DNA of 64,000 nt. Origin: Abditibacteriota bacterium. GTDB lineage: Bacteria; Armatimonadota; UBA5829. Each line of letters begins with the position of its first letter. Position 1 is the stretch's first letter. A model generated the notes under the pieces. The model was not told where the DNA came from, did not search any database, and was given only the letters and a program-made list of their open reading frames with translations. This document shows positions 30,837-36,511 of this stretch, in pieces. The translations under genes and the position numbers were made by a program. The DNA lies in contig OW818698.1 of assembly GCA_942493375.1 (NCBI GenBank), positions 6,082,139 through 6,146,138 of the forward strand. Direction: 5' to 3'.

Positions 30837-31619
30837 TCATAATCCCGCCGGGATTTCGTAATTCATTAATTTCACATGCCCATCAGCAAACCCACAGTTA
30901 TATCCACCGTTGTGTCTTTCGACTGCTTCTTCGATCGGAGCGGATGAGTTCCAACCTGTATTGGTGTCGAACAACATCGGAGTGCTGAAAGGTTCTGTAA
31001 TATTTGTCATGCTTACACCTTCCAGCTTTCCATAGAGTGAATAACCTCCTGATGCTTTGAACGCTGGACAAGTAAAAACCTTTTTGTCTTTCTCATAGGA
31101 TGCGAAGACATCAGACCAACTTCCGGCCAGGGGGAACTTATCATCATAGTCCTGCGCATACATCATGGCAGCATTACTGAGCTTATGTAGATTTGTAGCA
31201 CAGGTGGACTGACGGGCTTTCTCCCGGGCTTTGGCAAATACCGGAAAGAGAATTGCTGCAAGTATAGGGCTTAAAACTAACCCGGCAGTTCCTATTGCAC
31301 CCAACACAATTCCAGCTACAGCCAGCCCATGACCTTTTTGTCTACCCCAGCTGGACTTTATCTGGTTCAAAGCAACTATGCCCAGAATCAAGCCGACGAT
31401 TCCCATAAGTCCCAAAAACGGTATAATCCCCACCAAACCCAACACAAGAGAAGCTATTGCCATACCATTTTTAGATTTCTCCACAGAATCCGGAATCGAA
31501 TATGCCGGCTGAGGTCTGTAAGTGTCCTGAAACGGTGGACTTGGCGGAGCACTACCTGTACAGCTCTCGCACACCGTGGTTCCTTCGGGTAATTCCTTAC
31601 CACATTTACCACAAAACAT
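30837..31619 (-). CDS. Zn-ribbon / DUF4190 membrane anchor / pseudopilin-like H-X9-DG (DUF1559) protein, paralog 1
   Basis: [20 protein letters not shown] zinc ribbon. A Pro-rich linker. DUF4190-like two-helix segment [58 protein letters not shown]. Pilin-like helix [26 protein letters not shown]. The H-X9-DG motif sits in [15 protein letters not shown]. Confidence 0.75.
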   Translation of the reverse strand: [260 protein letters not shown]

Positions 31620-31633
31620 TATAATGCCTCCAA

Positions 31634-31966
31634 TTAGTGTTCCAGATCATTGATTATAGGTATTAAATATGCTCCCATGAATATTTGGATGACCAGCACA
31701 ATAATTCCGAGACATCCAATTACAATTCCTGCTATGGCCATTCCTCCGCCTTTTTGCCTTCCCATACTGGCTGTGATTTGGTTCTGACCGATTATTCCGA
31801 AAATTACTGCTACGATCCCGAACCCGAGCATTAGACCCGCAATACTTACGACCAGAGATGCCATAGCCATCTTATTGGTCTTTTGTGCTGACAAGATACT
31901 GCTTTTACAACTTTCGCATACAATGATTCCATCAGGCAATTCCTTACCACACACTTCACATTGCAT
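31634..31966 (-). CDS. Zn-ribbon / DUF4190 membrane protein (short paralog with no H-X9-DG domain)
   Basis: [20 protein letters not shown] followed by the two-helix [14 protein letters not shown] segment. 110 aa. Confidence 0.65.
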   Translation of the reverse strand: [110 protein letters not shown]

Positions 31967-31994
31967 ACTAATGCTTCCATTTCGTGTATGAATA

Positions 31995-32825
31995 TCAGTT
32001 GTTCATGCGATTATCGTCTTTCTCGTACCGCTTATATCCGGTGGCTGTTGCTCCTTTGGGTAGAACCCACGTCACATGACCATCTACGAAGCTGATGTTA
32101 TATCCTCCCTGGTGTCTGGCATCGAAACTGCTTACAGGTAGAGCAGAGTTCCATCCACCTTTGGCATCAAAAAGCAGTGGTGTGTTCGAGGGAATTGTGA
32201 TTTTCTCCAGACTTACCTGGTCGAGTTTATCATTGAAGGAGAATCCGCAATCCAGTTTCCGTGCAGAAGGGCAGCGGAATACCCGACTTTCATTGGTTAG
32301 CGGAGCGATTGCATCTGACCATTTATCAGCAATGGGCATTTTGCCATTGTAATCCTGTGTATAAGCCGAGACCGCCAGCGAGAGCTGTTTCAAGTTTGAC
32401 ATGCAGCTAGAGTCACGGGCTTTCATTCGTGCATTGTCGAATACAGGGTATAATATTGCACCAAGTATTATTGGGATAAACGCCACAGTCCCGATACACC
32501 CGACTACAATTCCTGCTATAGCTAATCCTCCGCCTTTTTGTCGTCCCATACTGGCTTTGATCTGGTTTTGACCGATTATACCTAGAATGATTGCCACAAT
32601 CCCTAGTCCTATTGCGAATCCCACTATACTTACTACCAACGATGCTATTGCCATACCGTTGGTCTTTTGCGCAGAATTCGGAGTTACATAATCCGGCTGA
32701 ATATAAGGTGGAGGTTGTGGAGGAAGATTGAATGACTGGGAGGATACGGATGCATTGCTCGATGTACAGCTTTCGCATACGGTGTTACCATCTGGTATTT
32801 CTTTACCACACTTGCTGCAGAACAT
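31995..32825 (-). CDS. Zn-ribbon / DUF4190 / H-X9-DG (DUF1559) protein, paralog 2
   Basis: [20 protein letters not shown]. The DUF4190 segment. [36 protein letters not shown]. The H-X9-DG motif sits in [15 protein letters not shown]. Confidence 0.75.
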   Translation of the reverse strand: [276 protein letters not shown]

Positions 32826-34630: not shown

Positions 34631-34674
34631 CTGTGTTCCTCCACGTTATAAATAAGGTCTTGAATTCGTATATG

Positions 34675-35541
34675 TTATTGGTCTAGCTTAATTGTTGTTT
34701 CGCTGTCTATATGAAAACCAACCGGTAGAGTGCCCGAGTTGATCATATCAGCCATACGTTTAGCTTCATTGATATTGGCGAACCCCGATATCTGTGCTTT
34801 TCCATCCGGGATCTCCTCTCTAATTTGAGGAGCCATCAGGAGCTTTCCATCATAAATAACCGCCAAAATCCCACCGATATTGTTCTTTGTAAACTCCGCA
34901 AAACGTTTTCCGGATTCCGGTTTGAACTCCAAATCCAGCATTGCGAATTTATCCTGGCTCCGCACAGCTCTGGCATTTGCCAGAAAGTCTTCACTTCTAA
35001 AAGCAAGTTTTACTTTCGGAATGCCAACTACTCTAGCCAGAAATTGTTTTGTATTGCTGAGCGAGTCAAGTGCTTCACCGGTAGGAGATGTAAAAGTGAA
35101 CGCTTCGCCGGTATGCACAGGCCCCTGCATTCTCCAGGATCCATACGGATTGGCATCGGACTGGACATCAGCCAGCAGATACATCTCCAGCGCAGCTCCG
35201 GACGTTATTCTGGCTCTAGCTTCCGTATGATTCTTAATGCCTGGAAGAAAAACCTCTATCTTGTTATTTTCTTTTACATCAACTCTCGAGGATGATGTGA
35301 AATCCAAATCATTGAGTCTCTTGCGCATCGTAACACGACAGGCATCTAACAGAGCCTTTTGATCCGCTGAACTATTCGGCCAGTTGGGACTGGTCATATC
35401 CGGAGACAGGACCAGTTTTATACCATTCACAGGTATATCCTCATCACTCCCGGTATTTGGAGCATAGAGCAGATATATACCTGCAACTAATGCGATTGCT
35501 ATTAACGGTAACCATATAAATCTGCCAATGCTGTTTAACAA
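34675..35541 (-). CDS. Stand-alone SecD periplasmic P1 (base plus head) domain protein with a single N-terminal TM helix. It lacks SecD TM2-6.
   Basis: TM helix [48 protein letters not shown] parallels E. coli SecD [81 protein letters not shown] matches the SecD P1-head pattern (vLDg.visaP.I.e.I.gG.aqItG.f...eA..La..L.aGaLP). The ORF ends right after the head. Confidence 0.65.
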   Translation of the reverse strand: [288 protein letters not shown]

Positions 35542-35593
35542 TAATAGGTCGTCCTAAATGATGATGTACCAAAGTTGAGTTTAGCTCTGAAAA

Positions 35594-36511
35594 TTACCGA
35601 CTGTTTCCAGGACCAGTGCTTCTTCTACCTGTTCCCATGCCGGGCATGCCACCAGGGCCTGTGCTATGTTCATTGATAACCTTGAGCGCTATCGGCATTC
35701 CCTCTTTGGATGTTACGATATCTATGACTTCCTGCCGGTTTTTGACTCCGGGTATAATAAGTATCAGAGTGACTGCGCTAACACTGGGTATAACTCCCGC
35801 GGCTGCGTGAGAATCTGTTATGCGTTTTTCGATTATATCACTTGATTCGCTAAGTTTGCGCTTGAGTGCTTCCGGCCCAATTCTTTGTGCTTCCATGGGA
35901 TCTGCTGGTACCAGAGTTAGATTCAAGCTGCCCTGGGTCTGCATACTCTGGCTATATTTCATGCTTTTGGTGACTGTCTTACCGAAATCACCTCCACCGC
36001 GCTCACCTATTACATAGAACAGCGCCACTATACCAACAATGCACCACAATACACTGAGCATACCGCCGATGACCGCCAGGTTCATACCCTTCTGCCGGGC
36101 CCTGTTAGCATCGATCATAAAAATAGCTACCAGAGCGAGGAAGAAACCCACAATAGCAGTAACAGGTATGGCACCGCAGATTAAGGCTGCAACAGCAACC
36201 TTGTTGTTCTGCTTCATGCTATCGGGTATATCTTGAGGGATCTGTTTGTACTCTGCTGCTGCAGCTGCCGGAGACAGGTGCATATTAGTCCCGCAGAAAG
36301 TGCAGAAATCGGAACCCTCAATAACCTGCTTTCCACATACAGGACATGAAACTGCTGCATGCTGCCAGGTCAACTGGTTATCTAGCGTTTCCTGAGGTGG
36401 CGGTGTGTTATCTGCAGCAGGTTCAGCCGGAGCCTGGCGCACGTCATTTCCACAAAAAGTGCAGAAATCCGAATCCTCAACAATTTCTTTACCACACATT
36501 GGACAATTCAT
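35594..36511 (-). CDS. Double Zn-ribbon / DUF4190 membrane protein with a C-terminal SecD-N-terminal-like alpha/beta domain
   Basis: Two ribbons (MNCPMCGKEIVEDSDFCTFCGNDV and VSCPVCGKQVIEGSDFCTFCGTNM). The DUF4190 segment. The C-terminal LTLVPADPMEAQRIGPEALKRKL...TLILIIPGVKNRQEVIDIV resembles the P1-base region of the 34675 protein ([11 protein letters not shown]...[19 protein letters not shown]). Confidence 0.55.
   Translation of the reverse strand: MNCPMCGKEIVEDSDFCTFCGNDVRQAPAEPAADNTPPPQETLDNQLTWQHAAVSCPVCGKQVIEGSDFCTFCGTNMHLSPAAAAAEYKQIPQDIPDSMKQNNKVAVAALICGAIPVTAIVGFFLALVAIFMIDANRARQKGMNLAVIGGMLSVLWCIVGIVALFYVIGERGGGDFGKTVTKSMKYSQSMQTQGSLNLTLVPADPMEAQRIGPEALKRKLSESSDIIEKRITDSHAAAGVIPSVSAVTLILIIPGVKNRQEVIDIVTSKEGMPIALKVINEHSTGPGGMPGMGTGRRSTGPGNSR

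Follow-up and report, generated by a model that had tools for sequence, protein, structure and literature searches.

Prepilin-type proteins of the DUF1559/H-X9-DG class (PF07596, TIGR04294 and PF07963) occur as large families of paralogs in Planctomycetota, Verrucomicrobiota and Armatimonadota. In Planctopirus limnophila, 68 copies have been described, two of which are essential, and the family is among the largest groups of paralogs in Planctomycetota (PMC10632474). These proteins carry a class III signal. Zinc-ribbon-DUF4190 proteins (PF13240/PF12773 and PF13828) are another described class, with an N-terminal module that consists of a CxxC...CxxC zinc ribbon, a Pro-rich linker and DUF4190. 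In this study, we analyzed a 64-kb stretch of DNA from an Abditibacteriota bacterium of the phylum Armatimonadota (hereafter, the window), which contains a cluster of seven genes, g1-g7 (30837-36511). Three of these genes encode proteins in which the zinc-ribbon-DUF4190 module is joined to the pilin-fold domain of DUF1559/H-X9-DG proteins.

The fusions are encoded by g1 (30837..31619, 260 aa), g3 (31995..32825, 276 aa) and g4 (33044..33859, 271 aa), all on the minus strand, and each consists of a zinc ribbon, DUF4190 and a DUF1559/H-X9-DG domain. In g1, the zinc ribbon occupies residues 3-20 (nt 31560-31613), DUF4190 residues 53-116 (nt 31272-31463) and the H-X9-DG motif residues 236-248 (nt 30876-30914). 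A continuous helix is predicted to connect the anchor with pilin helix alpha1 (residues 97-157, nt 31149-31331). With canonical DUF1559/H-X9-DG proteins, the fusions share the C-terminal half of alpha1N, alpha1C, Cys140, Cys184-Pro, the RHNxGxNxxFxDGHV motif and the short, ~130-aa globular form found in Armatimonadota. They differ in that the N_methyl signal is not detected, Phe1 and Thr2 are replaced, Glu5 is changed to Gly, and the N-terminus is anchored by DUF4190. Compared with zinc-ribbon-DUF4190 proteins, the N-terminal module is the same, but the last DUF4190 helix of g1, g3, g4 and g7 extends into a pilin-fold domain or a domain resembling the base of SecD P1. The product of g2 is essentially the module alone.

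The domain assignments were obtained with profile searches. A CxxC-x10-CxxC pattern can be read at the N-terminus of g1-g5, two ribbons are present in g7, and none in g6. The Pfam Zn_Ribbon_1 profile scored g7 at 44 bits (cut-off 25) and g1-g4 only below threshold (E 4e-5 to 0.035). A previous sequence-only reading of this DNA had described six consecutive zinc-ribbon genes, one of them with a doubled ribbon; the six genes and the doubling in g7 stand, but the genes are not strictly consecutive, as g6, the embedded SecD-P1 gene also noted in that reading, intervenes. DUF4190 (PF13828) was above its gathering score of 35 bits in g1 (61.4 bits), g2 (52.6 bits, E 3.8e-14), g3 (52.8 bits, 3.3e-14), g4 (57.7 bits, 9.8e-16) and g5 (48.7 bits, 6.4e-13), with an overall E-value range of 6e-13 to 7e-17. 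The g7 protein is below the Pfam threshold, and its homology is seen with g1 by BLAST (1e-13) and with a family hidden Markov model (HMM; 3.7e-6).

In the C-terminal part, the SBP_bac_10/DUF1559 profile (PF07596, cut-off 23.3) detected g1 (36.8 bits), g3 (36.5 bits, E 7.4e-9) and g4 (29.6 bits, 9.3e-7). A family-specific DUF1559 HMM spans the whole ~135-aa domain, with E-values of about 1e-52 to 1e-55 (4.4e-52 for g3 and 4.8e-53 for g4). The H-X9-DG model TIGR04294 (cut-off 19) scored g1 at 20.9 and g3 at 22.3 bits, with g4 marginally below at 18.9 bits. The motif itself is readable directly in the sequence, with conservation of at least 90% at His236, Asp246, Gly247 and His248; Cys140 and Cys184-Pro of the DUF1559 domain are invariant. 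A comparison with Pfam, proposed earlier as a check, therefore turned out as expected: the C-terminal domains of g1, g3 and g4 score as DUF1559, g1-g5 contain DUF4190, and g6 contains a SecDF P1 head.

The junction was analyzed in an alignment (MAFFT/HMMER) of 57 fusions and 38 canonical relatives. The fusions keep the conserved alpha1 segment and everything downstream of it, and the DUF4190 module takes the place of the leader and of the N-terminal half of the helix. The position aligned with Glu5 is Gly in 54 fusions and Ala in the other three, whereas it is Glu in all 38 canonical proteins. Position +2 is Ala in 57/57 fusions, in place of the canonical Thr, and a proline (Pro126, equivalent to pilin Pro22) is invariant. 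Neither PF07963 (N_methyl) nor TIGR02532 matched g1, g3 or g4 at E <= 0.1, and the GFTLIE motif is missing, so that the usual prepilin leader is indeed absent, as first noticed in the sequence-only reading.

An AlphaFold2 model of g1, built from a 95-sequence alignment, had a mean predicted local distance difference test score of 89.2. In this model, helices 52-64 and 67-89 form a hairpin, which is followed by an uninterrupted helix (97-157) and a small alpha/beta domain. The extended alpha1 is packed on an antiparallel beta-sheet, i.e., the domain has a pilin fold. Profiles, alignment and model thus all support the earlier proposal that three members run from the anchor helix directly into a DUF1559/H-X9-DG domain. 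That proposal had also included a DUF4190-like segment of two helices; the family assignment is confirmed by Pfam for g1-g5, but the modeled anchor has three helices, the hairpin and one further helix.

We infer that the N-terminus of these proteins is inside and the C-terminus outside, on the basis of domain types and charges. At the N-terminus, members of the family have a zinc ribbon, Prok-RING_1, GYF_2 or no module. The three named modules are cytoplasmic domain types, and characterized homologs of either C-terminal domain, pilin fold or SecD P1, have it outside the cytoplasm. The turn between the first two helices (H1 and H2) has ~4 residues and is never charged; H1 and H2 contain ~12 and ~15 hydrophobic residues, respectively, and the loop between H2 and H3 has a net charge of +2.1. 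The N-terminus would be cytoplasmic, a tight or re-entrant hairpin would return the chain to the cytoplasmic side, and helix 3 would cross outward in the manner of pilin alpha1N. In another genomic context, L085, two fusion genes enclose a tandem run of three DUF1559 paralogs (10824-12847) whose DUF4190 hairpin is degenerate, with charges in the former helix 1 and the single helix kept. These members look like an evolutionary intermediate between polytopic and single-helix anchors, and the retention of one helix without the hydrophobic hairpin fits the model of a hairpin with a cytoplasmic N-terminus.

The explanation that we favor, and regard as reasonably probable, is that g1, g3 and g4 encode permanently membrane-tethered, unprocessed and non-polymerizing pilin-fold proteins, with the DUF1559 domain at the periplasmic face and the zinc ribbon in the cytoplasm. 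The cluster would represent a tandemly duplicated inner-membrane family whose members share a zinc ribbon in the cytoplasm, a linker that is disordered and rich in Pro, and a DUF4190 anchor composed of a tight, uncharged helical hairpin and one membrane-spanning helix. In g1, g3 and g4, the last anchor helix would replace the class III signal and the first ~17 residues of pilin alpha1, and alpha1 would continue unbroken into the conserved segment and pilin-fold domain of an Armatimonadota-type DUF1559/H-X9-DG pseudopilin. This domain would be displayed on a long alpha1 stalk at the periplasmic face of the inner membrane, leaving the zinc ribbon free for cytoplasmic contacts. Because Phe1 and Thr2 are replaced, Glu5 is changed to Gly, and the domain is fixed to a polytopic anchor, these proteins most likely escape processing by prepilin peptidase and could not be extracted into a filament. 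In comparison with type IV pilins and major pseudopilins of type II secretion systems (PilA, PilE, GspG/PulG/EpsG), the fusions lack Glu5 and are probably neither cleaved nor N-methylated, and retention of the polytopic anchor makes their incorporation into a filament implausible.

Several observations weigh against this explanation. The topology was derived from domain types and charge counts, and a net charge of +2.4 after helix 3 leaves the positive-inside rule ambiguous. The SBP_bac_10 match is limited to profile positions 2-41 of 268, and, with ~40 of 268 positions matched, the domain is therefore a short, ~130-aa form. The 64-kb window, which also lacks SecDF, was found to contain no genes for pilus or type II secretion machinery, an assembly ATPase, a platform protein or a prepilin peptidase, and this speaks for the explanation; as the search covered the window only, however, pilus genes may lie elsewhere in the genome. 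The Gly aligned with prepilin position -1 is retained, with basic residues before it and a hydrophobic residue after it, and is compatible with cleavage. Finally, no known function has been reported for DUF1559 (PMC10632474, PMC2754498).

The retained Gly is central to the main rival explanation, in which the zinc ribbon and hairpin constitute a very long prepilin leader (~98 aa and two helices in the fusions) that is removed by prepilin peptidase after Gly (G98 in g1), and a pilin starting with LAIAG may join a pseudopilus. The segment [KR]-x-G-x-G|L-A-I-A-G-I-V of the fusions aligns with the canonical prepilin segment in both MAFFT and HMMER alignments, Gly occupies position -1 in 49 of 57 fusions, and prepilin peptidases require Gly-1 but not Glu5 for cleavage. 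However, this Gly is replaced by N, E, D, K or T in the other eight, and position +5 is never Glu, a residue required for assembly in the pilins and pseudopilins studied. The G-x-G-x-A-x-A-G motif belongs to DUF4190: it is part of the Pfam model of this domain and is shared by g2 and g5, neither of which has a pilin domain, and g7 has Asn at -1. In addition, the hydrophobic helix of the fusions is 3-6 residues longer than that of a canonical pilin. Taken together, these features make a cleaved long-leader prepilin rather improbable.

The tethered architecture is not restricted to this cluster. DUF4190-DUF1559 proteins occur in at least 57 public database clusters, and both domains are present in about half of the 120 best relatives of g1. 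Their database labels are only "DUF4190 domain-containing protein" or "prepilin-type processing-associated H-X9-DG protein", and no published description of the fusion was found in the literature searched. The architecture, which the sequence-only reading did not recognize from any described system, is thus undescribed in that literature but already present in databases under generic labels, and it is a real, recurrent, unnamed variant of a known family. That reading had also suggested genomes of the Planctomycetes-Verrucomicrobia-Chlamydiae superphylum as the place to look for the same fusion; instead, the named sources are Armatimonadota metagenome-assembled genomes and one Verrucomicrobiae entry.

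When the globular domain alone was compared, the nearest relative was another fusion for 56 of the 57 fusions, and the canonical proteins formed their own clade, although the sample is biased by the way it was collected. This pattern indicates that the fusions are likely a coherent subfamily and not sporadic events. DUF1559 genes are also common in this phylum, as a scan with one genome per species yielded more than 578 of one motif type, nearly all in Armatimonadota. A locus search with a 12-sequence alignment, which keyed on FPVFA[RK]ARE, yielded almost exclusively canonical Armatimonadota DUF1559 genes, with fusions only in L005 and L006. The result serves as a background set, as no DUF4190 or P1 neighbor was found at its canonical DUF1559 loci, but it is poorly suited for testing synteny.

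The remaining members of the cluster combine the same anchor with other C-terminal parts, or with none. g2 (31634..31966, minus strand, 110 aa) contains only the zinc ribbon and DUF4190 and ends just past YLIPIIN, a degenerate pilin-helix remnant. With 54% identity to g3, it is a lineage-specific truncated duplicate related to that gene. g5 (33980..34630, minus strand, 216 aa) has a zinc ribbon, a long Pro-rich linker, DUF4190, a degenerate FPAILKLREQARQ pilin-helix remnant and a 45-aa tail, without a globular DUF1559 domain. Accordingly, of the two members previously said to stop after the anchor, g2 does so, but g5 retains the degenerate motif and the tail. The g5 linker contains NSPYPG three times (residues ~55-90) within a Pro-rich stretch of ~70 residues, and this repeat is kept and expanded in its ortholog h5. 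Identities within the array are uneven: 52-56% among g1, g3 and g4, consistent with an initial estimate of 40-60%, but 25-54% for pairs that include g2, g5 or g7.

Two genes, g6 and g7, are related to SecD. g6 (34675..35541, minus strand, TTG start, 288 aa) encodes an N-terminal signal-anchor helix and a complete SecD P1 region (base and head), with no zinc ribbon. It matches SecDF_P1_head at 6.3e-20 (71.6 bits, cut-off 27), SecD_1st at 2.6e-5 (24 bits, below the cut-off of 27) and the P1 crystal structure of Thermus thermophilus SecDF (PDB 3aqo) at 3.4e-17. The match to TIGR01129 covers positions 30-238 of 397 (5.5e-28) with 98.2 bits, compared with a full-length cut-off of 244, and g6 is not a full SecD, as it ends directly after P1 without transmembrane helices (TM) 2-6. 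An exhaustive HMMER search revealed nearest relatives with E-values of 1e-43 to 1e-26 and 30-37% identity, mostly of ~275-297 aa and with the same boundaries (P0127-P0144, and those in L089, L091 and L092). Many of these carry a lipobox-like xGC signal. The next-best matches, full-length SecD/SecDF proteins, have the same clade-specific insert. Because the closest relatives of g6 share its P1-only boundaries, stand-alone SecD P1 proteins are a separate, wider family, for which no published description was found in the literature searched.

g7 (35594..36511, minus strand, 305 aa) has two zinc ribbons, a divergent DUF4190-like anchor of three helices and a C-terminal ferredoxin-like domain that resembles the SecD P1 base and lacks the head subdomain. 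This agrees with the previous suggestion that one member ends in a SecD-N-terminal-like domain. Close orthologs, with at least 60% identity, were the only relatives of g6 and g7 found with a word-index search, and the two genes are a lineage-specific addition. Their domains may pair like P1 base and P4 in SecDF. In contrast to SecD/SecDF (TIGR01129; 3aqo/3aqp), however, g6 and g7 lack the proton-conducting TM2-6 bundle and SecF, and movement of P1 driven by the proton motive force is therefore impossible. Since the same anchor carries a pilin fold, a P1-base-like domain (g7) or nothing (g2 and g5), the zinc-ribbon/DUF4190 anchor looks like a generic module that replaces the single N-terminal helix of periplasmic domains.

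A layout with a cytoplasmic zinc module, a membrane anchor and an outward domain is also found in TcaA-type and zf-HC2 anti-sigma-type proteins. The similarity is one of layout only: no significant homology extends past the zinc ribbon, the cluster has no sigma factor gene next to it, and the anchor has three helices versus one. An anti-sigma-factor function was considered and rejected because of the missing sigma factor gene. g7 has a weak NCBIfam match to the N-terminus of TcaA (1.1e-5, far below the cut-off). None of the PADLOC-DB defense models matched g1-g6, and g7 had only weak matches at the zinc-finger level (E 3e-4 and 3e-3).

In a relative with 79% identity to g1 (loci L001-L003), the whole cluster occurs in the same neighborhood. 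Orthologs in the related genome, including those of g6 and g7, are 60-79% identical. L002 has no g2 ortholog (the best match is h3, 51%) and has an extra member, hX, found only there; the content of the array thus changes by gene gain and loss. For six orthologous pairs, the ratio of nonsynonymous to synonymous substitution rates (dN/dS) was 0.10-0.20, compared with 0.04-0.055 for flanking genes; these values are approximate, as dS was ~0.6-1.8 and near saturation. Such ratios point to functional genes under purifying selection. This includes g5, which is maintained and not decaying, because its ortholog h5 is conserved (67% identity) with dN/dS of 0.13. For g4, the ortholog h4 is 75% identical.

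Outside this lineage, seven further independent contexts contain fusion genes: L004 has an array of five or six and L085 one of five, L093 has a pair, and L087, L088, L094 and L005 have one gene each. A SecD-P1 gene was not present near the fusion genes in any of these contexts, and their neighbors are unrelated. Conversely, no DUF4190 gene was found near the stand-alone P1 genes of L089, L091 and L092. Fusion and SecD-P1 genes occur together only in the window and in L001-L003, and co-occurrence in multiple lineages was not observed. As there are no conserved partner genes beyond the lineage of the window, the conserved unit is a fusion gene prone to tandem duplication and not a multi-gene system. 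In a single case (L087, 7369-8964), a divergently oriented DsbD-type thiol:disulfide interchange gene adjoins the solo fusion gene and may relate to the two invariant cysteines of DUF1559.

These distributions bear on the candidate undescribed envelope system of the sequence-only reading, taken here as one dedicated machine of all seven genes in which SecD-P1 and tethered pseudopilins would act together, e.g., in periplasmic substrate handling or secretion. The genes are on a single strand with gaps of 14-52 bp and one of 218 bp, all are under purifying selection, the full set including g6 and g7 is kept in the related genome, and g7 links the two themes physically, as its SecD P1-base fold is attached to the shared anchor. 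On the other hand, fusions occur alone or in arrays without SecD-P1 in all seven other contexts, P1 genes occur without DUF4190, and g6 and g7 have only close orthologs, so that the association is seen in one lineage and could be a retained chance juxtaposition. The multi-gene system is not upheld by this comparison, and a dedicated machine, or a functional link of g6 and g7 to the tethered pilins in this lineage, is unlikely. The opposite extreme, a decaying array of paralogs or a gene-calling artefact with no current function, could draw on the truncation of g2 and g5, on the variable gene content (g2 and hX) and on one L004 array member (11441-12135) that appears to be split into ORFs of 158 and 72 aa, by a frameshift in a pseudogene or by an assembly error. 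But six orthologous pairs have kept intact frames over the above dS range with low dN/dS, the truncated form of g5 is conserved in the relative, and the architecture recurs in many database clusters; this possibility is very remote.

A more speculative version of the tethered-protein explanation, which we consider improbable, is that the DUF1559 proteins are fixed, membrane-proximal subunits of a pseudopilus (an anchor, nucleator or stopper). They would dock on canonical DUF1559 pilins through alpha1 and connect the fiber through the zinc ribbon to a cytoplasmic partner, joined in this lineage by a P1/P4-type pair of g6 and g7 that lacks the proton-driven domain. If true, type IV filaments would have a mode of anchoring or regulation not known before, and the very large DUF1559 family would gain its first functional handle. 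Regarding permanently tethered proteins more generally, a pilin-fold domain may work outside filaments, which constrains hypotheses on DUF1559 function toward binding or scaffolding at the inner membrane rather than fiber formation. The presence of tethered and cleavable paralogs in one phylum offers a clean, testable contrast. The zinc-ribbon-DUF4190 module also emerges as a substitute for single N-terminal helices in two periplasmic domains that are unrelated to each other, and a by-product of the analysis is the family of stand-alone SecD P1 proteins, often of lipoprotein type. These findings do not yet amount to a new machine or mechanism.

With regard to the organization of the cluster, g1-g7 are seven co-oriented open reading frames (ORFs), all present at the coordinates given above, and the single wide gap is between g4 and g3. 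An alternative upstream ATG of g4 is located at 33931; the start at 33859 (MFCNKCGKE) is most likely used, because h4 starts in the same way (MFCIKCGKE). A candidate sigma-70-like promoter (TTTACA-16-TATTAT, 10/12 match) lies upstream of g7 on the minus strand (36645..36672). As promoter-like matches across the region are no more numerous in total than expected from shuffled sequences, it is a candidate only.

The g4-g3 gap contains a pair of tandem, near-perfect palindromes of ~70 nt each (32865..33021). The palindromes form hairpins of ~28 bp, and the predicted RNA minimum free energy for 191 nt is -117.5 kcal/mol (z = -11.5). Four copies of the arm motif GGGAGACCGCAGAGGG lie in this gap and none elsewhere in the window, with 0.01 expected, and neither the syntenic loci L001-L003 nor any of the 92 loci compared contain it. 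No U-tract follows the hairpins, and Rfam gave only sub-threshold, miRNA-like matches for them. The hairpins may be an insertion similar to repetitive extragenic palindromes or miniature inverted-repeat transposable elements, or a structure within the operon that serves in transcript processing or attenuation.

Apart from the cluster, a family HMM scan found no DUF4190 or DUF1559 gene in the 64-kb window, and its neighbors encode glycoside hydrolases and housekeeping functions. A 256-aa membrane protein with weak matches to DUF1751 and Rhomboid (E 6e-7 and 5e-4) is encoded about 4 kb away from the seven genes (26187-26957, plus strand), and its position is kept in L001-L003. Processing of the anchors by this rhomboid-like protein would be pure speculation; two genes intervene, and it is on the opposite strand. 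Genes for DUF6259, GHL6 and GH123 proteins mark surroundings rich in carbohydrate-active enzymes, with two DUF6259 proteins at 5652-8381 and 36768-39014 (plus strand), one of which has CBM96. At 54219-55685 (plus strand), a single ORF of 488 aa has an unusual pairing of an RNase H/RVT_3-like domain with an N6_N4 DNA methylase domain. Finally, a very large chemoreceptor with six HAMP_2 repeats is encoded at 12530-16672.

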